Positions 499 through 62,324 of a stretch of 64,000 nt of DNA are shown here, piece by piece (within the stretch, counting starts at the first letter, position 1; the number at the start of each line of letters is the position of its first letter). Below the pieces are notes generated by a model. The model did not search any database. It was not told where the DNA came from and saw nothing but the letters and a program-made list of their open reading frames with translations. Location of the stretch: the NCBI GenBank assembly GCA_963825575.1, contig CAWGUB010000018.1, forward strand, positions 179,419 through 243,418, given 5' to 3'. Made by a program: the position numbers and the translations under genes. Source of the DNA: an uncultured delta proteobacterium. GTDB taxonomy: Bacteria; Desulfobacterota; Desulfuromonadia; Desulfuromonadales; BM103.

Positions 499-3372
499 TT
501 AAAGTACATCCTGCAGGTAGGCTGCTGTCGTCGCCCGCTTCTCGGCTTCAATCGCCTTCGGATCAACTTCGACGAATTTCTCGTCGGGAGTCACCTTGAA
601 AATCGGCTGCCCTTTCTGAACGATCACGCCGTCGCCGCCCTCGATCAGGATCTTGTCGACAGTGCCGGAGAAGGGGGCCGGGACCTTGTTGAACATCTTC
701 ATGACTTCGAGGATGAACAGCGGCTGGCCTTTTTCAAAGTGGTCGCCTTCATTGGCGAACTTCGGCATCCCGGGAGCTTCCTGGGCATAGTACATGCCTC
801 CTCCCGGAGTGACGATCTCGTCGGCCCTGGTTGCCGGCGGCGGCACCAGAATCTTCTTCATGGCCGCCTGCAGGTCCGGATCGTTGAGATAGTCGGGGAT
901 GGTGACTTCGAGATCGGCTTCGACCTTGAAATCGAAGAAATCGGTCCGGTCAGCGATCAGGAACAGCATACCGAACAGTTCGTTGCCGACCTCGTAGCCA
1001 AGATGGGCCTCCTGAATCTTCGCCCAGGTTTCCTTGTCAAAGCCACCCTGCGGCTTCTCTTTGCCGAGGATGTCGTTGAGTTTGAGGAACTCGCCCTTCT
1101 CGAGACCGAATTTGCCTCGCAGTTCGGCATAGAAATCCAGGGCATTCTGCAGCAGGTCGCGGTCATGGGTCCAGATCACTTCGGCCGCCGGGGCGTCTTC
1201 GCGCCAGGTCATGTTGAGGTACTCGTAGGTTTCCTCGAGGATGACCAGAGGGTTACGCAGCCAGATCAGCTTGCCGTTCTCGAACTTGAAGTTCTTGCGG
1301 TTGATGCTGAGCCACCCGGAAAGCAGGTGCGGGTCAGCCAACAGAAATTCCATCGGCCGGGTCAGCAGGGTCCCCTTGCGATCAAGGGTCTCGGAAATGG
1401 CCGACTTGATCTCCGGGTCATCACCGTAGACCGTGCCGAAATGCTTCTTCATCGCCAGGAACGCGAAAACCACGTCGAGTTTGCTGGCCTCTTCTTTCAG
1501 CTTGCCAACCAGGGTCAGGTAGGGGACCACGAAACGGGTGGTCGGCTTGGCCATGACGTTCTGGCCAAGGAACCAGTTGACCAGGCCATAGTGGAATTCC
1601 AGGTTGGTCGCCAGGTTGCTGCCACGCAGAACCGTACTGCGCAAAACCTTGGAAAGATGCTCATAGCTGTCGAGACGGTCCTCTCCCTTGGTCAGCAACA
1701 GGGCGATATTCGAATCGTAGGCACCGGCCAGGTGGTAGCGCATGAACTGGTTGGTGTCCGGGTTCTTGATGCAGATCCCCTGGTCATCACGGATCTCACC
1801 TTCGATCGGCGCCGACCAGTAGCGGACATAGCCGCCGGCACTCGGTGACAGAGAGCAGTCGGTCGCATTGAGCCGGGCTTCAGCACCGGCGCCGAAGCGC
1901 TGCAGGCGCTCAGGACGCGGCAGGCGCTCTTTGTGCCTGGCCAACAGGGCCATCGCCTCGACCAGCGACTCGACGATAAAGAAGTCTTTCTTGTTCTTCG
2001 GATTGGTGAACTTCAGCTTGTAGACCAGCTCGGTAACGCGATGCTCGACCTGGATGCGGGTGTTGACTTCCATGAAGTAATGGCGATCACGGTCAACGAT
2101 ACATTCGAAGGTCGACGCCGAGTCAAGCCCGACGGCGATACCGAAGCGCTCAGACTCGTCTTCCATCCGCTTCAGCACCTTGAGGTCCGTCTCCAGGGCC
2201 GCGGCCTGGGCCTTGAGCCCGGCTTGCTTGGCCTTCTTGATTTCTTCGGCCAGGGCTTCCTGGGTGACAGAGACTTCCAGCAATTTCTGCTCATGCATCT
2301 GCAGGGAGCAGTCACGGCCGCCAAGGGCGATGGTCCACTCACCATTACCGAGCAGCTGAATTTCGTTGTGGCGGGTCTGTTCGATATTCAGCTCGACCAG
2401 CACGTTCTTGTTGTCACCGACCCCGTTTGCCTTGACTTCAAGCAGGACTTCGCGGACCATTTCCGGTGCCGTCGAGGCAGCCTTCTTGATCTCGGCATCG
2501 GTCGGGTTCTTCTTGGTCAGCAGGGAGGCCCCGAGGATACGCTGGCCCTTGCCGCCGCCGCCGCCGATCGCCTTGAGGCGGATCCGGGCGCCGGGATAGT
2601 TCTTGAACATGTCGAAACACTCTTTTTCGACCTGTGCACCGAGCTCGTCCATGGAAAAGAGGTCGACCCCCTTGCCGTAGGACGCCATCAGGATATGATC
2701 GGCCAAATCTTCCAGCGCGAGGGTTTTGTCGTCGAGCACCTGCTTGTCGCACTTGAGCCCTTCAGCCTTGACGACGGCCAGCAGAGCCGCGCGGCTTGGA
2801 TGCTTGGTGACCAGGGTGCGGGACGTCGCGTTGTCGATACCCGGCGTGACCGAGACATTGACGCTCAGCGCGGTCCGCTTGGCCTCGTCCTTCTTGCCGG
2901 CACCACGCTGGGTGGCGGCACAGGGGCCGATGAACTTGAGGCCGGCATCCTCGATAGCCTGGACAAACTCGTCGTCCTCGGCCATGAATCCGTAACCGGC
3001 GAAGATCGAGTCATAGCCGTTATCATGGGCAATCTGGATGATCTGGCCGATCCGCTCGACGCGCTCTTCCTTGGAGGCCCCGGTGTAATCCGGCACGCGG
3101 TGCACGCGACTGTTGTCGGTCAACATGCGCAGCTCGGGAGAGAGTGCATTCGGATAAACGATCGTATCCTTCTCGGAGAGCAGGATGCCGTAATGGCTGA
3201 TGCCCATCTCTTCGTAGACGGTCATTGCCTCAAGGCGGATCGGACCGCGACAGACGATCAGTGGTTTGAGGTCTTCGCAAGAGAAGGAACGGACCCACTC
3301 GGAGTCGGACTTGCCCAAGCGGCGATCGCGATGAATCAGTGGATTGTTCGTGTAATTATCATTTTGTGCCAT
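499..3372 (-). CDS. large biotin carboxylase (ATP-grasp) fused to a C-terminal biotin carboxyl carrier domain; subunit of a biotin-dependent acyl-CoA carboxylase of unknown substrate
   Basis: 957-aa ORF. It has a divergent BC N-terminus (KPLIVCRGPIRLEAM), a GGGGKG glycine loop and HYFMEVNTRIQVEH. The C-terminal biotinylation motif is LEVMKMFNKV. Confidence 0.75.
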   Translation of the reverse strand: MAQNDNYTNNPLIHRDRRLGKSDSEWVRSFSCEDLKPLIVCRGPIRLEAMTVYEEMGISHYGILLSEKDTIVYPNALSPELRMLTDNSRVHRVPDYTGASKEERVERIGQIIQIAHDNGYDSIFAGYGFMAEDDEFVQAIEDAGLKFIGPCAATQRGAGKKDEAKRTALSVNVSVTPGIDNATSRTLVTKHPSRAALLAVVKAEGLKCDKQVLDDKTLALEDLADHILMASYGKGVDLFSMDELGAQVEKECFDMFKNYPGARIRLKAIGGGGGKGQRILGASLLTKKNPTDAEIKKAASTAPEMVREVLLEVKANGVGDNKNVLVELNIEQTRHNEIQLLGNGEWTIALGGRDCSLQMHEQKLLEVSVTQEALAEEIKKAKQAGLKAQAAALETDLKVLKRMEDESERFGIAVGLDSASTFECIVDRDRHYFMEVNTRIQVEHRVTELVYKLKFTNPKNKKDFFIVESLVEAMALLARHKERLPRPERLQRFGAGAEARLNATDCSLSPSAGGYVRYWSAPIEGEIRDDQGICIKNPDTNQFMRYHLAGAYDSNIALLLTKGEDRLDSYEHLSKVLRSTVLRGSNLATNLEFHYGLVNWFLGQNVMAKPTTRFVVPYLTLVGKLKEEASKLDVVFAFLAMKKHFGTVYGDDPEIKSAISETLDRKGTLLTRPMEFLLADPHLLSGWLSINRKNFKFENGKLIWLRNPLVILEETYEYLNMTWREDAPAAEVIWTHDRDLLQNALDFYAELRGKFGLEKGEFLKLNDILGKEKPQGGFDKETWAKIQEAHLGYEVGNELFGMLFLIADRTDFFDFKVEADLEVTIPDYLNDPDLQAAMKKILVPPPATRADEIVTPGGGMYYAQEAPGMPKFANEGDHFEKGQPLFILEVMKMFNKVPAPFSGTVDKILIEGGDGVIVQKGQPIFKVTPDEKFVEVDPKAIEAEKRATTAAYLQDVL

Positions 3373-3428
3373 TGGTTATCTCCAAATCGAAACCTTGATT
3401 CGCTTAATGATCAATTAAATTCGCTCTG

Positions 3429-5153
3429 TTAATGGAACTCGCGCTGGACGTCCTGCCAGGTTGACGGCTGATAGTGCCGCAGCAGGAAGTTCATGTTTTC
3501 ACCGAGGACCTTGCGCAGATCGGTCGGCATAACCAGCGAGGAGATCGAACCAAGGGCCAGACCTTCTTTCGGGTTCATCAGTTCTTTTTCGTAGCGCAGG
3601 TTGAGTGCTGCTTCCTGGTTCTTCAGCCATTCTGCCGCTTCGGCTTCGGCATCTCTTTTTGCCTCGGCCCCTTCCACACCAGCCTTGATGCGCGCCTGGG
3701 TCCCTTCGGCCACCATCTGCTTGATGGCGCCGCGGATCTTGCGCAATTCAGTCTTGTAGACGAACTCCTTGCCGGCCGGTCCCATAACCGCAAGGCGCGT
3801 GGTCGGCAAAGCGAGGACCAGGTCTGCGCCGGTCGGGTAGTTGTTGAAGGAAGCATAGGCGCCGCCGTAGGCGTTGCGCAGAATCAGCAGGATCCGCGGG
3901 GTGCGCACATCGACGATCGAATCGAGCATCGAGCGACCGGCCTGGACAATGCCGCGGGCTTCCTGCTCGCGCCCAGGGAGGAAGCCGGTGGTGTCTTCCA
4001 TGAAGATCAGCGGAATATTGTAGATGTTGCAGAACCGCACGAAGCGGGCAATCTTGACTGCCGAGTCGCAGTCGATCTGACCGGAGGACACGGAACTGTT
4101 GTTGGCGACGAAGCCGACCACGTTGCCGCCGAGACGACCGAAGGCGGTGATTGCTTCGCGGGAGCGCTCTGGCTGAATTTCAAAATAGTCGCCATGATCG
4201 CAGATCTGCTGGATGATGATCGAAACATCAAACGGGGTGTTGAAGCCGGTCGGGGAGTTGAAAGCTTTTTTCAGCAGGGTGTTGATCTCCCAGGTCTTGC
4301 GATCAAGCGGATCGCTGGTCTCCTGGAAAGGCGCCATGCTGAAGTTATTGTCAGGAAGATAGCTGACCAGTCGTGACGCGGTCCGCAAGGCGGCTGTCTC
4401 ATCAGCGACGGTCAGGTCGGCGACACCGGAGGCGCCGTGCACCTTGGGGCCACCCAGTTCTTCCGGGGTGATGTCTTCGCCGAGCACGGACTTGACGACG
4501 CCCGGGCCGGTCAGACCGAAAAAGGTATCGTTCGGCTGGATAACGAAACTGCCCTGGCGCGGCAGGTAGGAGCCGCCACCGGCATTGAAACCGAACATGC
4601 ACATGACGGTCGGCACCACGCCGCTGATCTTGCGCAGGGCGGTAAAGGCCTCCGCATAACCGTCGAGACCACCGACCCCGGCAGGGACAAACGCACCGGC
4701 CGAGTCGTTCATGCCGATCAGGGGCAGGCCCTTCTCACCGCACATATAGAACATACGCGCCAGTTTGTTGCCGTTGGTTGCATCGATGGAACCGGCGCGG
4801 ACCGTGAAGTCGTGGCCATAGACGCCGACATCACGGCCATTGATATTGAGAATCCCGGTCACCAGCGAGGCGCCGTCGAGGTTCTTACCCCAGTTCTGGT
4901 AAAGCACATTCGGCTCTTCCTGGGTCAGGACCTTGATCCGTTCCCAGACGGTCATGCGCTTCTTGAAGTGCTGCTTTTCAATCTGGCCGACGGCAACGGA
5001 TTTGATCGGGCGCTGGATCAGGTCGTAACCTTCCTGCATAACCTCTTCGTAGCCGCCGCGGACCCCGGCAACTTCACCAGGGATGGTGAACTCGACTTGT
5101 TCCGGTGGAGCAAATGGATTCTTCAGTGACGGTTTAATCGCTTTTTTGGCCAT
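3429..5153 (-). CDS. acyl-CoA carboxyltransferase (propionyl-CoA carboxylase beta / GcdA-like single-chain CT)
   Basis: 574-aa ORF with two CT halves (MNDSAGA..., [11 protein letters not shown]...). It lies directly upstream of the BC-BCCP gene on the same strand. Confidence 0.8.
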
Positions 5154-14627: not shown

Positions 14628-15110
14628 TTACCCGTTGGCCTTGCTATGCTTTTCGAGAGCTTGTGCATTGATCTTGATGCAAAGGCATTCACCGGTGGCG
14701 TAGAGCGCGCCATCCAGGCTGCAGACTTCACCATGGACCATAACCTTGCGGCCCTGTACGGAAACAATTCGCGTAGTCACCTGCACCACGGTCTTGATCG
14801 GCAGCAGATTGCGGAAGTTGACATTCAGGTTTCCGACCACGACCTGATGTCCCGCCGCCCAGGCGGCCAGGCCGAGAACTTCATCAAGGACCGCAGCGAT
14901 ACTGCCGCCGTGCGCGTGTGCAGGAGGGCCCTCGGTGACCGGGCCGAACCAGACCCGCGCGACCAGATGGCTTTCCTGGTCACGGAAGTATTTGATCCGG
15001 AAACGATTGCCGGTCTGGTCTCCCGAGACGAATCGCAAGGTTTCTCCAACCAGGGCAGGCGCATCGAAAAGCGCCCATCCGGGTTCACCATTGAGCTCCT
15101 GGTCAGTCAC
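14628..15110 (-). CDS. PaaI/hotdog-fold thioesterase family protein
   Basis: ORF 14628-15176. A GTG at 15110 has GAGGAG 6 nt upstream and is the preferred start. The motif HGGSIAAVLDEVLG is present. Confidence 0.6.
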   Translation of the reverse strand: MTDQELNGEPGWALFDAPALVGETLRFVSGDQTGNRFRIKYFRDQESHLVARVWFGPVTEGPPAHAHGGSIAAVLDEVLGLAAWAAGHQVVVGNLNVNFRNLLPIKTVVQVTTRIVSVQGRKVMVHGEVCSLDGALYATGECLCIKINAQALEKHSKANG

Positions 15111-15228
15111 GTTGTTCTCCTCAATGAAAAAAGGACACTTCCTCTGGAAGTGTCCCAGATTGTTGACAAACCCCACACGTGATGCGGGTTTTGTTTTTTA
15201 CCTGGCAGGTGGAGGTATCATGAATCTT

Positions 15229-15753
15229 AGGGCAACAGAGGGTTCATCTGTTGCCCTTGCTTATTGTACTCCGCTTAAAGACAAAAGCAGAACCCGGGGG
15301 TTGCGCCCGCCCGACTGCGCCATACTCTTTTCCGGCCCAAAAGAGTAAGCAGAAAAGGGCCTTCGCTGCGTAGGGCATGTCTGGCTCGTCAGGCTTTAAC
15401 CTCAATACAGATTGCTCTTATCGATCAAGAGCCTACGCTTCCCCCGCAGGTGTCGAGGCTCTTGTGAGCCTCTACTTCTCTGGATGATTGCTTCTGTAGT
15501 CATACTTTTCAGGCTTTTCTCCTGTAAGTGTCACTGCAAGGAAGGCCCCCCTGTGGAACGGGCCGGCTTATGTAAGCTCCGTCCTATTGGATTCCTCAGA
15601 AATCCGGCAAAGGAGATGCCCTCCGCAAGGAGCAGGCACTTTTGCATACTTTTGTTGCCGGACAAAAGTATGGCGTTGGGCGGGACGCGACCCGCCGGTT
15701 TTGCCTTTAAACAGTCAATGGATGAGGGCAGCAGATGAACCACCTGTTGCCCT
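15229..15753 (+). mobile_element. MITE-like structured repeat, copy A (outer hairpins 15229-15257 and 15725-15753; core 15275-15710)
   Basis: Closely similar by eye to copies at 32436-32964 and 55038-55570. It has nested inverted repeats and no conserved ORF. Confidence 0.7.
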
Positions 15754-15823
15754 CTCTCTCTTGAAGTCTGATTGAACCTTGCCAGAAGTCTGGGACACTT
15801 CTTTGCAAAAGCGCCCCTGATCA

Positions 15824-16912
15824 TCAACCGTTCTTGCTCTCGAACTCCTTCATGAATCCGGCCAGGGTCTCAACACCGGCCAGTGGCATGGCGTTGTAGA
15901 TCGAAGCACGGATACCTCCGACATTGCGATGCCCTTTGAGGGCATAGAGGCCCAGGGCACCCGCTTCCTTGAGGAACTTCTCCTCCAGTTCGGGGGTCGC
16001 CAGATTAAAGCTCACATTCATGGTCCCGCGGAACTCGGGCAATATCACGCCACGGAAATAGTCGCCACCATCGATCAGGTCATAAAGGATCCTGGCCTTC
16101 TGCTCGTTCACCTTTTCAATCGCTGCAATGCCACCTTGCTCCTGCAGCCACTCCAGGACCAGGCCAGTTACATAGATGGCAAAGGTATTGGCCGTGTTGG
16201 TCAATGAATTGTCGGCAGCACAATCTTTGTAGTTGAGCAGGGTCGGAGTCTGCGATGAAGCATATTCAAGCAGGTCTTCACGGATCACCACGATAGCGGT
16301 TCCGGCCGGCCCGAGGTTCTTCTGCAGACCGGCGTAGACGCAGCCGAATTTGCTGAGATCAAGAACCCTCGAAAGCATTTCAGATGTCTGGTCAACGATC
16401 AGCGGCACATTTCCGGTCTCCGGGAATGTCTGCCAGCGTGATCCGTACAGGGTGTTGTTGCCGGTCACGTGCAGGTAAGCAGCGTCCTGGTCGATCATCT
16501 CTGGAGTAACAACCGGGATGCGGTCGTAGTTGGTGTCGGCGCTGCTGGCAATCACCCGAATGTCCCCGAACGGCTTGGCATCCTTGTGCGCCAACTTGGC
16601 GAAGTTGCCGGTCTCGACGTAGAGACACTTGTTCGACGATGAACGGCCGGCAAGATTCATCGGCAGAGCCGAGAACTGCATGCGTGCCCCACCATGCACG
16701 AAGAGGATCTTGTAATTGTCCGGCAGGTTGGTCAACTGGCGAAAACGTTCCTGGGCATCGACCAGAACTTTTTCGAACTGCTTGGCACGATGGCTGACTT
16801 CGATGACCGAAACACCGAGCCCCTGGAAATCGAACCATTCCTTCTGAATCCGTTCCATGACCGGGACTGGCAGCATCGCCGGACCGGCACCGAAATTATA
16901 AACCTGGGACAT
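15824..16912 (-). CDS. serC: phosphoserine aminotransferase
   Basis: 362 aa. The N-terminus is YNFGAGPAMLP and the overall SerC pattern is present. Confidence 0.9.
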   Translation of the reverse strand: MSQVYNFGAGPAMLPVPVMERIQKEWFDFQGLGVSVIEVSHRAKQFEKVLVDAQERFRQLTNLPDNYKILFVHGGARMQFSALPMNLAGRSSSNKCLYVETGNFAKLAHKDAKPFGDIRVIASSADTNYDRIPVVTPEMIDQDAAYLHVTGNNTLYGSRWQTFPETGNVPLIVDQTSEMLSRVLDLSKFGCVYAGLQKNLGPAGTAIVVIREDLLEYASSQTPTLLNYKDCAADNSLTNTANTFAIYVTGLVLEWLQEQGGIAAIEKVNEQKARILYDLIDGGDYFRGVILPEFRGTMNVSFNLATPELEEKFLKEAGALGLYALKGHRNVGGIRASIYNAMPLAGVETLAGFMKEFESKNG

Positions 16913-32223: not shown

Positions 32224-32435
32224 TTTCCGGAGTTGGATCGACCTGACTTTTACTTTGCACAGACATTCGATTTTTCATGCAGGAACAAAAACTGCTCAGG
32301 TCGTTCGAGCCTTCGACTTCTCCAATCCGTGTTCAAATTAATCATACCTGTACGGCACAAACAAAGAAAGCCCGGTCATAAATGGCCGATGCCTTGCAGA
32401 CTGCTGACAAAGTTCAGTCAGGTTTTATGATTAGA

Positions 32436-32964
32436 GAAGGAACCGAGGGTTAATCTGTTGCCCTCTTGTGTTTCTACTCTGAAAGTCAAAAACAAGACAA
32501 AAGAACCCGGGGGTTGCGCCCCCCGACAGCGCCTTACTCTTTTGCTGGCCCAAAAGAGTAAGCAGAAAAGGGCCTGCGCTGCGCTGGGCATGTCTGGCTC
32601 GTCAAGGCGGCAACCTCAACTCAGATCAGTGAGCACGATTACATCGCTACACTTCCCCCGCAGGAGCCGAGGCTCTTGTGAGCCTCTCCTTCTGTGGAGG
32701 ATTGTCATCGGTCAGGTGCTTTAGGCTTTTCCCTGTAGACCACACTGGAAAGGTCAGGCCCTTTGAACGGGCCGGATCTTCATTACAGCTCGGTCGTCTA
32801 TTGATGACTCAGACAACCGGCAGAGGAGATGCCCTCCGCAAGGAGAAGGCACTTTTGCATACTTTTGTTGCCGGACAAAAGTATGGCGTCCGGCGGGACG
32901 CGACCCGCCGGTTCTGGTTTTAAACATAAAGGAATTAGAGCAACAGATGATCTCCTGTTGCCCT
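32436..32964 (+). mobile_element. MITE-like structured repeat, copy B (degenerate left outer hairpin; right hairpin 32937-32964; core ~32493-32923)
   Basis: Aligns along its length with copies A and C. Its 5' core terminus is degenerate. Confidence 0.7.
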
Positions 32965-32971
32965 AAGCTGC

Positions 32972-33001
32972 AAAGCCCCGGTCATAAATGACCGGGGCTT
33001 T
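32972..33001 (-). terminator. nuo operon terminator (palindromic, could act on both strands)
   Basis: AAA-GCCCCGGTCAT-AA-ATGACCGGGGC-TTT, lying 27 nt beyond the nuoN stop. Confidence 0.7.
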
Positions 33002-33027
33002 GAGATAACTCGCGAGAGGTGTTGAAG

Positions 33028-55003: not shown

Positions 55004-55037
55004 GCAGATATCAAATCTATTTGCAGTGAACAAACTA

Positions 55038-55570
55038 AGGGCAATGGGTGGTTAATCTGTTGCCCTTAGTTTGTTGTGCTCTGGGATTTAAAGACAAAAG
55101 CAAAACCCGGGGGTTGCGCCCCCCGACTGCGCCTTACTCTTTTGCTGGCCCAAAAGAGTAAGCAGAAAAAGGCCTGCGCTGCGCTGGGCATGTCTGGTTC
55201 GTCAAGGCGGCAACCTCAATCCGGATGGTTCTTATCGATCAAGAGCCCAGCTTTCCCCCGCAGGAGCCGAGGCTCTTGAGAGCCTCTCCTGCAGTGGAGA
55301 CTTGCGTTGATAGAGCTTGTTTTGGCTTTCCCCTGGTAAATTACACGGCAAGGTCAGGCCCTTTGACACAGGGCCGGATCCTTATCACAGCAGGTTCTTG
55401 AAGTCACAGAAATCCGGCAAAGGAGATGCCCTCCGCAAGGAGAAGGCACTTTTGCATACTTTTGTTGCCGGACAAAAGTATGGCGTCGGGCGGGACGCGA
55501 CCCGCCGGTTTTGCTTTTGTCTTTAACTTCCAAAGTCTAATAAAAAGGGCAACGGGTTAACCCGCCTTTG
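55038..55570 (+). mobile_element. MITE-like structured repeat, copy C (best-preserved termini; core 55088-55526)
   Basis: The core ends are perfect 14-nt inverted repeats TTAAAGACAAAAGC / GCTTTTGTCTTTAA. The left outer hairpin lies at 55038-55066 and is extended by CAAACTA/TAGTTTG. The right outer hairpin is degenerate (55544-55569). Confidence 0.75.
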
Positions 55571-55600
55571 CACTTGTGGGTTGAATCAACGAGAGCTGAA

Positions 55601-55637
55601 AGCCACGCACTTAATAAATTTGTGTGCGGGGCTTTTT
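55601..55637 (+). terminator. terminator-like hairpin downstream of copy C (possibly the displaced hemL terminator)
   Basis: AGCCACGCAC-13 nt-GTGCGGGGCT pairs at 9 of 10 positions and is followed by TTTTT. Confidence 0.45.
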
Positions 55638-55761
55638 GCATGCACATAGAGTCTGTCAGAATGCCCCGCGCAAGACTAACCTCTGTTCAAAATACACAAA
55701 CAAGCTTATCATCCGTGGTGTTGTATACTTATGGGACATCCCGACATCAAGGAGAAGATTG

Positions 55762-57267
55762 ATGGACATCAAAATCCGCAAAACATCCCCGCTGCAAATA
55801 AAGACCCCATGCATGGTGATCGGTGTCTGCGAGAAGGATTTTTCAAAACCTCTATTAAAAGAACTTGATCAGAAGCTCGGCGGTCTGCTCCGCAAGGCGC
55901 AGCGCAATGGAGAATTTTCCGCCAAGGCGGATGAACAGATTCTTTTCCAACCCGCCGGACACCTTCCGGCAGAGCGTGTTCTCCTCATCGGCCTCGGCCG
56001 GGCAGAAAAGATCACAACCGAGAAGATCCGTCGTGCGGCCGGTCAAGCAATACAGCTGGTTGCAGAAAGAAAGTTTGGCTCGATGGCATTTGCCTTGCCG
56101 CCCGGCACCGGCGGAAGTGATTATGCCGCTCAGGTCCAGGCTGCAGCAGAAGGACTTCTTCTGGCCAGCTACCGCTACGACCTGTTTCTCGGCGGAAAAG
56201 CTAAAGGTTCACGCAAACTGCCGAAAGCTGTAACCCTGATGGTCGAAGCTGAACATGACAAGAAAGGCTGCGAGGCTACCGTTGAAAAGGCGCAAAAACT
56301 CTGCCGAGCCGTGATCTTGGCCCGTGATCTCGTCAATACGCCAGGGAACATAAAATCGCCTGCCTTCCTCGCAGAACAGGCACAGGCGGCGGCAGGTGAA
56401 AGCACATTGAAATGCACGGTTCTCGGCCAGAAACAATTAGTCAAGGAAGGTTGCAGCGCCCTGCTCAGCGTGGCCCAGGGCAGCGCACGAGAGCCCCGGC
56501 TGATTATCCTGGAACATCATGGCGGCGGCAAAGGCGAGGCGCCAGTCGCCCTGATCGGCAAAGGCGTCACTTTTGATTCCGGCGGCATATCGTTGAAATC
56601 GCCCGAGAAGATGGATGAGATGAAGATGGACATGGGCGGTGGCGCAGCGGTTATCGGCACCATGCTGGCGGCCTCACTGCTAGAATTGCCGGTCAACCTG
56701 GTCGGCATCATACCCGCAGTGGAGAATATGCCCTCGGGAACGGCCTATCGGCCGGGCGACATATTGACCAGCCTCTCCGGCCAGACGATCGAGGTCCTCA
56801 ACACCGATGCCGAAGGCCGCCTGATCCTTGCCGACGCCCTGACTTATGCAAAACGTTACGAGCCAAGACTGGTCATTGATCTGGCGACCCTGACCGGGGC
56901 CTGCATCATCGCCTTGGGTCATCAGGCCACGGCCGTCCTGGGCAACGACCAGAAGCTTGTCCAGTCGCTTTTGAACGCCGGGGAGAAAAGCGGTGAGCGT
57001 CTCTGGCAACTACCGCTCTGGGAAGAGTATGATCAGCTGATCAAAAGCAGTGTTGCCGACGTCAAAAACACCGGCGGCCGGCCGGCCGGCACAATCACCG
57101 CAGCAGCCTTCCTGAAGAAGTTTGCGAATGATTTCCACTGGGCCCACCTGGACATCGCCGGCACGGCCTGGCGCGACCAGGATCAGCCTTACACACCGAA
57201 AGGCGGGACCGGAGTCGGCGTGCGACTGCTGATTGAATTTTTGCACGACCTGGCTGCCGCAGAATAA
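55762..57267 (+). CDS. pepA: leucyl aminopeptidase (M17)
   Basis: The ATG at 55762 has AAGGAGAAG upstream. It has the NTDAEGRL signature and VALIGKGVTFDSGG. Confidence 0.9.
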   Translation: MDIKIRKTSPLQIKTPCMVIGVCEKDFSKPLLKELDQKLGGLLRKAQRNGEFSAKADEQILFQPAGHLPAERVLLIGLGRAEKITTEKIRRAAGQAIQLVAERKFGSMAFALPPGTGGSDYAAQVQAAAEGLLLASYRYDLFLGGKAKGSRKLPKAVTLMVEAEHDKKGCEATVEKAQKLCRAVILARDLVNTPGNIKSPAFLAEQAQAAAGESTLKCTVLGQKQLVKEGCSALLSVAQGSAREPRLIILEHHGGGKGEAPVALIGKGVTFDSGGISLKSPEKMDEMKMDMGGGAAVIGTMLAASLLELPVNLVGIIPAVENMPSGTAYRPGDILTSLSGQTIEVLNTDAEGRLILADALTYAKRYEPRLVIDLATLTGACIIALGHQATAVLGNDQKLVQSLLNAGEKSGERLWQLPLWEEYDQLIKSSVADVKNTGGRPAGTITAAAFLKKFANDFHWAHLDIAGTAWRDQDQPYTPKGGTGVGVRLLIEFLHDLAAAE

Positions 57268-61596: not shown

Positions 61597-62269
61597 AGGG
61601 CAACAGATGGTTAATCTGTTGCCCTTAATTTTTTCTTTAAATTCTTAAAAGAAAAACCGGCGGATCGTGCCCACCTGTGCCTTACTTTATTTGTTTGCAA
61701 CGGAAAGATTTTTACGTTGATTCACTAAGCACGATGCAATTAAAGGCCACCGGGTCAAGAAAGCAGTACCGTGAGGCCCCCTGCAACGGGCCGGCTCCCG
61801 TACACAAAAGCTATTACAAATCACAGAAATCATGCCGACGTCTATGCCCAGCGCAGCGCAGGCCCTTTTCTGCTTACTCTTTTAGGCCAGAAAAAGAGTA
61901 AGGCGCCGTCGGGGGGCGCGACCCCCGGGTTCTGGCTTTTGTTTTGTCTTTAGAATTTTGGAGGACAAAAAACAACACCGGCGGGTCGCGTCCCGCCAGA
62001 CGCCATACTTTTGTCCGGCAACAAAAGTATGAAGGGCCTTCTCCTAGCGGAGGGCTATAGACGTTCGCGAAGGGGATATGGCTTTCAGGAACAACAGAGG
62101 AGAAGAGCCGGCCCGTTTACAGGGGGCCTTACCGTAGTGCTGTCAATATGGGGCGGCAAGATCATGCTGATGAGACCAATTGCACCCGCAGGGACAGAAC
62201 TAAAAACCCTTCTTCTTTGCAGTCCAGAAGACAATGAAAAAGGGCAATAGATGAATTATCTGTTGCCCT
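61597..62269 (-). mobile_element. MITE-like repeat locus D: two divergent/truncated cores (about 61635-61953 and 61962-62225) in inverted orientation between one pair of outer hairpins
   Basis: Outer hairpins lie at 61597-61625 and 62241-62269. The internal modules are reverse complements of the copy A-C modules (for example 61863-61900 and 61978-62030). Confidence 0.65.
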
Positions 62270-62324
62270 ACGAAGCATCAAAACGTAGCTGTACTAAACC
62301 ACGGTTTAATTATTAACCACCTCT

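Follow-up and report, generated by a model that had tools for sequence, protein, structure and literature searches.

The 64,000-nt stretch analysed here (the window; C18:179419-243418 of the 3.22-Mb assembly of a Desulfuromonadales metagenome-assembled genome (MAG) with 37 contigs and ~54% G+C) harbors four copies, named A to D, of a repeat family whose members are best understood as nested, non-autonomous mobile elements of the Desulfuromonadales, which live in intrinsic terminators and at the same time imitate them. We assign a probability of about 0.6 to this reading. It is carried by the duplication of the host's own terminator hairpin on either side of the element, by differences in the occupancy of sites between close relatives, and by terminator-like hairpins within the element. 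Throughout the text G000 denotes this genome, G### other genomes, C# a contig and L### an extracted locus; G002 is the closest relative, a sister species, G001 a more distant genus mate, G006 a member of another genus and G029 of another family.

An earlier interpretation of the window, made from its letters only and termed here the sequence-only reading, had proposed that four loci constitute one family of structured, intergenic elements. The four loci indeed belong together, as the repeat search recovers three copies in the same orientation plus an inverted composite, and all four can be aligned with each other. Further copies, which that reading expected elsewhere in the genome, are plentiful: a profile built from copies A-C yields 276 nhmmer matches in the 3.22 Mb, about 65 of which are near-full in that they cover more than 400 model positions, an abundance far above chance. 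No pair of copies in this genome resembles assembly redundancy upon pairwise comparison, and the median pairwise identity among the copies is 81%. The 29-nt hairpin motif of the family occurs 104 times in the genome and, since 87 of these occurrences lie within 100 bp of an element match, the hairpin (HP) is a part of the family and not an independent repetitive extragenic palindrome (REP); the sequences ATGGTTAAT and ATTAACCAT are found 21 and 17 times genome-wide, respectively. Beyond this genome the family is present in 36 of 41 relatives, and among 201 genomes of the class, representing 72 genera, 54 contain its end module, which is thus found in 31 genera. All matches are confined to the same order, where they are distributed over at least 16 families, and several of the carriers are single-contig genomes. 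Sequence records sharing the 29-nt motif are likewise Desulfuromonadales/Geobacteraceae MAGs, while plasmid and phage collections gave no family match. Genome papers on Geobacter and Pelobacter list many 'multicopy nucleotide sequences', none of which was matched to the family, the main Geobacter texts dealing with other repeat families, and a search of the supplements of the Pelobacter carbinolicus genome paper for the family motifs gave no match either.

The anatomy of the element was derived from a consensus of 66 copies together with the flanks of each copy. A full unit measures ~635 bp and consists of four layers, namely the X/Y arms, the HP pair, the core and the duplicated host hairpin, which follow each other from left to right as host hairpin H, X arm, HP, spacer, core (L module, unique centre, R module), spacer, HP', Y arm and, once again, the host hairpin. 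The X arm reads TCAGATTGTTGACAAAC, followed by the hairpin CCCCGCA..TGCGGGG, a T-run and CCTGGCAGGTGGAGTTTCTATGAAGCTT, whereas the Y arm ends in ...TCTCTATCATGAAGTCTGGCTGAACTTTGTCAGCAGCCTGA; the two arms are unlike and have in common only a 17-bp outer terminal inverted repeat, TCAGryTGyTGACAAA. HP is a 29-bp palindrome of 12-5-12 architecture (AGGGCAACAGAT-GGTTA-ATCTGTTGCCCT), and HP and HP', with about 470–525 bp between them, are inverted to each other with reverse-complementary loops. The core of ~440 bp belongs to a single family with L/L2 variants, and its end modules of ~110 nt are inverted repeats of each other (70–76% identity over ~150 nt in reverse self-matches). Read outward, both core ends present an AT-rich hairpin, a GC hairpin and GGTTTTGCTTTT, thus resembling terminators, while HP together with its T-rich tail reads inward and the X arm has a terminator-like hairpin of its own.

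Much of this architecture had been recognised by the sequence-only reading. The 29-nt hairpin, written there as AGGGCAACAG-N9-CTGTTGCCCT with mutually reverse-complementary loops, is present, as are the core boundaries given for copy C, the imperfect inverted modules at the core ends and all of the smaller hairpins named, and the many indels in the alignment of the copies agree with its remark that open reading frames (ORFs) do not keep their frame between copies. Of the hairpins placed there on both sides of each copy, the right one of copy C is degenerate, and the spacers described as non-conserved are moderately conserved in the consensus. The element ends were placed too narrowly, since the X/Y arms and the duplicated host terminator hairpin lie outside of the 29-nt hairpins, so that copy A, which is a complete unit, extends over 15133-15833. 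Its classification as a MITE-like (miniature inverted-repeat transposable element) structure of nested inverted repeats without a transposase stands, whereas the outer arms, the host-hairpin duplication and the flipping or swapping of cassettes had escaped it. Among the criteria for MITEs, terminal inverted repeats, small size without coding capacity and presence/absence polymorphism are found, whereas a short target duplication of fixed length is lacking and a parent insertion sequence (IS) was not found among the 41 genomes and four enzyme families covered. Inside the listed copies only short ORFs (at most 79 aa) occur, and relatives' copies contain no long ORF.

Not every copy is complete. 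About 25 carry both X and Y arms and are mostly 612–650 bp long, while others are devoid of one arm. Roughly 14 copies have neither HP nor X/Y, and at least four of these carry another palindrome, GGGACACAAT..ATTGTGTCCC, whose distance to the R end is constant. The 440-bp core is also found without X/Y, as R-L junctions and in head-to-tail arrangement: R-L junctions without a centre are present at at least eight loci, three cores follow each other head-to-tail at C26:51236-52406, and G029 contains arrays in which up to five units recur every ~505 bp, without HP or X/Y. In one such array (L128, G029:C7:134500-139000, positions 1065-3570) alternate units among the five are 94–98% identical and neighbouring ones ~62%, as if a dimer had been duplicated.

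The layer that bears most directly on mobility is the outermost one. In 19 of the 25 X..Y copies, locus-specific similar hairpins are observed in both flanks, with local alignment scores of 24–62 compared to at most 22 in mismatched controls (60-nt flanks were aligned, flanks of different loci served as controls, and the control maximum of 22 was taken as cut-off); by a like cut-off, paired flank hairpins are found in five of eight copies of relatives (controls at most 16). The duplicated stem-loop spans 19–36 bp, its length varying with the locus, and the unit sits at the foot of the gene's terminator stem-loop. The left hairpin copy keeps its A-rich leader and abuts the CAG of the element and the right copy follows CTG and keeps its T-run, hence the repeated unit is the stem-loop itself. 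Pairs whose orientation can be discriminated are mostly direct repeats, e.g. at copy B, C17, L014 and L079. As a genome-wide control, 1186 perfect hairpins (stem length 8 bp or more) were considered, among which all similar pairs 81–1300 nt apart involve the family and none is found elsewhere; four similar pairs in this control are the host hairpins flanking X..Y copies.

Unoccupied sites show the other side of this picture. The serC site of G006, an outgroup from another genus, contains a single hairpin, the unoccupied C26 site of this genome has one where L098 has two around the element, and the unoccupied C24 site of this genome has a single one where L014 has two, which argues that insertion duplicates the stem-loop. 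At L086/C18 this genome has one clear hairpin and the left copy in the relative is decayed. An empty site corresponding to the C9 copy was not found, as the flank is not conserved in the relatives. At G000:C5:1899-2003, the sole site of the genome with two similar GGGGACAC..GTGTCCCC hairpins 40 nt apart and no element, the pair may be the footprint of a lost copy.

Gain and loss are evident from comparison with close relatives. Copy A (15157-15791) is absent from G002, where the flanks are ~90% identical and two related hairpins with a 14-nt spacer remain, and G001 has an element at the same site with the same X..Y orientation and an inverted core. The simplest history of this site would lead from one hairpin, as in G006, via an insertion with duplication to a loss in G002 that left both hairpins behind. 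When relatives' elements are compared with the syntenic sites here, ten have the same orientation, five are inverted and six are without a counterpart core, the L014/C24 and L086/C18 sites described above being two of these six. The sequence-only reading had tied mobility to such presence/absence polymorphism, and had looked to empty sites for any target duplication; both are borne out by copy A, by the six elements just mentioned, and by the single hairpins at the unoccupied G006 serC, C26 and C24 sites as opposed to two at the occupied ones.

The interior bounded by HP varies in orientation and in content. Across loci the core is oriented one way or the other relative to X-to-Y in 20 versus 22 cases (own count). 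Breakpoints of flips were resolved at two loci and fall into HP in both: at L097/C27 the overlap between the inverted block and the forward flanks is, at either end, exactly the 29-nt HP, and HP sites likewise delimit the part of locus D that is inverted in G002. Furthermore, when the ~80 copies of this genome are ordered by their match to the central region of the relative's element, the syntenic copy takes only places 14 to 62 in 13 of the 14 syntenic pairs, the best matches being copies elsewhere with 83–96% identity. Judged by these alignments, the syntenic 'flips' are at least partly swaps, and from the low rank of the syntenic copies it follows that the HP-bounded interior behaves as an exchangeable cassette. 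For the same reason, that syntenic cores are not orthologous, an attempt to read syntenic identity ('elements evolve faster than flanks') as neutrality was withdrawn. Copy C, with 99.5% identity, is the exception: it lies within a tract of ~820 bp (55017-55840), including the start of the next gene, that is 99.5–100% identical to G002 compared to a background of ~90%. Since this tract reaches beyond the element, purifying selection was discarded as an explanation for copy C, and the tract looks like a recent recombination import.

Taken as a mechanism, an enzyme supplied in trans would recognise terminator stem-loops by structure, either as an extruded cruciform or as a single-stranded hairpin, and would cut at both hairpin feet, with repair turning the entire stem-loop into a target-site duplication. 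At the HP palindromes, site-specific or homologous recombination would flip or exchange the inner cassette, and the built-in terminators would replace those disturbed by the insertion. Insertions would thereby be nearly harmless, which could explain the high copy number and long persistence of the family. A more far-reaching version, in which a structure-guided machinery targets any Rho-independent terminator and duplicates the whole hairpin whatever its length, while a dedicated HP recombinase flips or exchanges tens of cassettes, both being served by one or more chromosomal enzymes outside of the Y1, Y2, IS630 and IS110 families, can be put forward only tentatively.

Several observations weigh against the mobile-element reading. 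Neither this genome nor the extracted loci yielded a bare X-HP-Y shell. The hairpin pairs at C9:183341, C6:195172 and L009 match better in inverted than in direct orientation; they are probably the result of later loop flips and would otherwise point to a different mechanism. At the C17 locus (L160, 1002-1829) the two hairpin copies of this genome are identical at 22/22 positions, but in G002 and G004 (L164, L165) element, Y arm and right host hairpin are present without the left hairpin and the outer X arm, a difference that requires either two deletions of independent origin or a gain in this genome at a later time and that complicates the simple history. To our knowledge no transposon family has a target duplication that corresponds to an entire hairpin and varies in length, and for this reason the staggered cut at the hairpin feet is a mechanism that we infer. 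The conservation of the R module above that of serC, described below, could reflect an RNA or protein-binding function and not a transposition signal. Finally, no mobilising enzyme was found: none of the four profiled enzyme families (Y1_Tnp, DDE_3/IS630, DEDD/IS110 and Y2/IS91) tracks the element across the 41 relatives.

With respect to these families, Y1_Tnp (PF01797) has no match in this genome, G001 and G003, all of which are rich in elements, IS630-type DDE genes are absent from the whole genus, IS110-type DEDD genes from G001, G002, G004 and G011, and IS91-type Y2 genes from this genome. As already stated by the sequence-only reading for the window, no transposase is found there, nor among the repeats of the genome; its self-comparison displays no IS-like repeats but only contig-end overlaps and ordinary genes, and no gene is enclosed by L..R or X..Y pairs (end-module pairs 0.6–3 kb apart were searched). 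Two 1845-bp X-like pairs that might have marked a parent IS stem from a pilO/P/Q region that is duplicated where contig ends overlap. A resemblance of the Y end to mariner-type ends (CAGG.TG.CTGA.AAGT) was dropped as a lead in view of the missing IS630-type genes. A class C group II intron was rejected on account of ends that do not fit and no domain V or other Rfam match, and the AAC/GTT core likeness to an integron attC site is superficial only. One element copy of this genome (L155, on C20) contains a 1339-bp IS110-family IS (284-1622; minus-strand ORF of 361 aa at 464-1549). Its insertion point lies precisely between ...GGCCCTTTTCT and GCTTACTCTTTTGG, where the AT hairpin of the L module has its foot. 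Another IS110-type gene, located at C19:81632, lies outside of any element.

It is also conceivable, though unlikely, that the conserved part represents a gene for a structured non-coding RNA, or a divergent pair of small RNAs ending in the terminal modules, and is spread by the DNA mobility; the R module, with its GNRA-type capped stem, AU-rich hairpin, GC terminator hairpin and U-run, would then be the functional 3' domain. In its favor speaks the pattern of variation among 432 distinct end modules from 124 sources across the order. The AT hairpin is 95% Watson-Crick paired despite 148 variants, with at least two Watson-Crick types at 6/11 pairs, the GC hairpin has at least two at 4/6 pairs, and the small capped stem exists in at least four variants (CTCC/GGAG changing to CACC/GGTG, CGCC/GGCG or CTCT/AGAG), whereas controls with shifted partners collapse. 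All three R-module hairpins are kept by compensatory changes. Furthermore, the R module is 85–91% identical between genera or families compared to ~70% for the centre of the same copies and 77–81% for serC coding DNA, it folds better than shuffled sequences (z = -3.5), and both core ends resemble outward-facing intrinsic terminators. However, the same compensatory pattern is expected for single-stranded DNA hairpins, and an excess of G-U over A-C pairs is not seen within the genus (178 vs 223); for the AT hairpin across the order the counts are 46 vs 27, and the G-U excess of the GC stem traces to one inherited column. Compensatory changes without a convincing G-U excess imply that the hairpins act in single-stranded nucleic acid, DNA and RNA being indistinguishable in this respect. 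The centre folds no better than shuffled sequences (z = -1.0), and the core occurs in either orientation relative to its neighbours. A simple scan limited to sigma-70-like promoters found none in copies A or C. Searched at gathering and permissive thresholds, Rfam matches the window only at a tRNA and gives nothing beyond chance level up to E = 10, with no match in the loci of four relatives. L and R being inverted repeats, the symmetry of the core ends is equally expected of transposon termini.

A host-maintained mosaic intergenic repeat, akin to bacterial interspersed mosaic elements (BIMEs) or neisserial intergenic mosaic elements (NIMEs), is less probable still. HP would be a binding site of a chromosomal protein or a recombination site, spread would occur by recombination or gene conversion, and the repeats could act as bidirectional terminators, insulators or recombination hot spots. 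The combination of palindromic units with fixed motifs would fit such a mosaic, as would terminators facing inward at HP and outward at the core ends; the finding that syntenic cores are not mutual closest relatives is what conversion or cassette exchange would produce, the nearly identical tract at copy C points in the same direction, and NIMEs share inverted repeats that flank exchangeable units as well as dynamic syntenic arrays (PMC1797815). Gene conversion, however, can neither make copies at new loci nor duplicate a locus-specific hairpin, sites are gained and lost between close species, and the copies with their median identity of 81% are far from homogeneous. Very improbable, lastly, is a chance nesting of independent MITEs (core into HP element into X/Y element), each moved by a different ordinary transposase and flanked by pre-existing tandem terminators: cores without X/Y beside the other palindrome, two hairpins without an element at the copy A site of G002 and the IS inserted into the C20 core, which demonstrates that nesting does occur, are outweighed by the missing bare outer shell, the lack of similar hairpin pairs away from the family, the single hairpins at outgroup sites and the failure to find a matching IS.

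The features of the four copies in the window are collected in Table 1.

Table 1. Layers of copies A to D, with positions counted from the first letter of the window.
Feature	Position	Strand	Remarks
Copy A, left host terminator hairpin GGACACTTCC-TCT-GGAAGTGTCC	15133..15155		minus strand keeps T-run and acts as terminator after serC; one related hairpin there in G006, two without element in G002
Copy A, X arm	15156..15228	+	outer terminal repeat CAGATTGTTGACAAAC, conserved terminator-like hairpin and T-run, CCTGGCAGGTGGAG..ATGAATCTT
Copy A, left HP	15229..15257		29-nt palindrome, then T-rich tail; inward-facing, terminator-like; fold z = -4.0
Copy A, core (L module, unique centre, R module)	15275..15710	+	from repeat search and alignment
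Copy A, right HP	15725..15753		loop inverted compared to left HP
Copy A, Y arm	15754..15808	-	somewhat decayed; reverse complement CAGACTTCTGGCAAGGTTCAATCAGACTTCAAGAGAGAG; compared with Y consensus
Copy A, right host hairpin GGACACTTCTTTGCAAAAGCGCCCC	15809..15833		decayed; matches H2 of G002 and G001
Copy B, left nuo terminator hairpin	32367..32395		decayed; direct repeat of 32972-33004
Copy B, Y arm CAGACTGCTGACAAAGTTCAGTCAGG...	32397..32435	+	
Copy B, HP + core + HP'	32436..32964	+	core orientation relative to X/Y opposite to copy A
Copy B, X-arm remnant AAGCTGC (7 nt)	32965..32971		remaining arm deleted
Copy B, right nuo terminator hairpin AAAGCCCCGGTCATAAATGACCGGGGCTTT	32972..33004		intact
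Copy C, left HP	55038..55066		
Copy C, core	55088..55526	+	perfect TTAAAGACAAAAGC / GCTTTTGTCTTTAA ends; L module ~55088-55200, R module ~55405-55526
Copy C, right HP	55546..55574		degenerate
Copy C, decayed X-like arm, then host terminator hairpin GCCACGCAC...GTGTGCGGGGC and T-run	55575..55640		arm assignment probable
Copy D	61597..62269	-	one HP pair (61597-61625, 62241-62269) encloses two partial cores, joined R-to-L

Copy A is complete, copy B lacks most of its X arm and the arms of copy C are decayed. A plus-strand ORF (14646-15182) crosses the left host hairpin of copy A and ends within the X arm. Judging from G006 and G002, the true gene beside copy A is probably encoded on the minus strand and begins near 15113, preceded by a GAGGAG ribosome-binding site, in which case the long ORF would be an insertion artefact. 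Elsewhere in the window, the segment 8309-12929 (4.6 kb) corresponds to ~0.85 kb in G002 (C1:75409-76260), where a D-like composite element is located at 75436-76032 and gives a reverse match of 82% to window positions 61689-62272.

Several contigs of the assembly end inside an element copy. Contig ends such as C7/C23, C29/C30, C24/C25 and C8/C13 share overlaps of 5–12 kb with other contigs at 96–99.7% identity, which suggests strain heterogeneity or unmerged overlaps in the MAG, and several of the breaks between overlapping contigs are located within element copies.

If the duplication of a whole hairpin is the true signature of insertion, the target would be chosen by DNA structure and not by sequence, and a hitherto unrecognised enzyme would be at work. 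In an environmentally important order, that of the Geobacter and Desulfuromonas relatives, the family occupies many intergenic regions. Since it breaks MAG assemblies and supplies or replaces the terminators of housekeeping operons, it matters for annotation, operon prediction and engineering. The conserved end module of ~100 nt is a candidate for a recombination signal or a small RNA domain.

In order to place the family among known systems, it was compared to segments and elements with similar habits. Invertons and recombinase-mediated cassette exchange resemble it in that inverted palindromic sites bracket a segment found in both orientations (here between species and loci), with the resolved breakpoints lying in these sites. 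They differ from it insofar as tens of dispersed copies exist here and no sigma-70-like promoter was found in the segment (copies A and C); an invertase was not noticed beside the copies examined, in the course of which no systematic search was made. Other elements target hairpins, namely IS1397/ISKpn1 and IS110/IS1111-family ISs, which insert into REP sequences, and class C group II introns, which insert after terminators; these carry an enzyme gene of their own and are not known to duplicate the hairpin. The likeness lies in the stem-loop at gene ends that guides the choice of target, whereas here the distribution of IS110-type genes does not follow that of the family, and a group II intron domain was not detected. 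With REP, BIME and REPIN sequences and their RAYT enzymes the family shares inverted palindromic pairs with fixed motifs, a position after genes and, presumably, mobilisation in trans. In contrast to these, this genome as well as two genus mates are devoid of Y1_Tnp genes, a GTAG head is lacking in HP, the members of an HP pair are ~470–525 bp apart instead of adjacent, and the element is ten times larger and accompanied by a target duplication.

Prokaryotic MITEs such as Correia/CREE of Neisseria, Chunjie of Geobacter uraniireducens and SPRITE/BOX/RUP of Streptococcus pneumoniae are alike in being gene-less, intergenic and present in high copy number, with terminal inverted repeats, polymorphic presence and stable predicted folds. 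Their target duplications have a fixed length of 2–9 bp, whereas a whole stem-loop of 19–36 bp is duplicated here; three nested layers, a flippable interior, structured ends of ~110 nt conserved across the order and the lack of a detectable parent IS set the present family further apart. Chunjie is unlike it in form as well (178–235 bp, 21-bp inverted repeats, 9-bp direct repeats, AT-rich). SPRITE, on the other hand, resembles a Rho-independent terminator and sits at the 3' ends of genes, and pneumococcal repeats insert into one another (PMC3184786, PMC10969869). NIMEs consist of RS units with the 20-bp inverted repeat dRS3 on either side; their syntenic arrays vary from strain to strain, the palindrome has been proposed as the substrate of a site-specific recombinase, and ISs and other repeats insert opportunistically (PMC1797815). 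Common to NIMEs and the elements described here are short palindromic inverted repeats that bracket exchangeable non-coding units, the formation of arrays and the differing content of syntenic loci. The interior of NIMEs is made up of more than 100 unrelated families of 50–150 bp, whereas here a single conserved core family of 440 bp is found with arrays of the same unit; outer arms and host-hairpin duplication are not described for NIMEs, and HP is unrelated to dRS3. Among the habits described so far, those of SPRITE-like terminator mimics and of NIME/dRS3 mosaics come closest to those of the present family.

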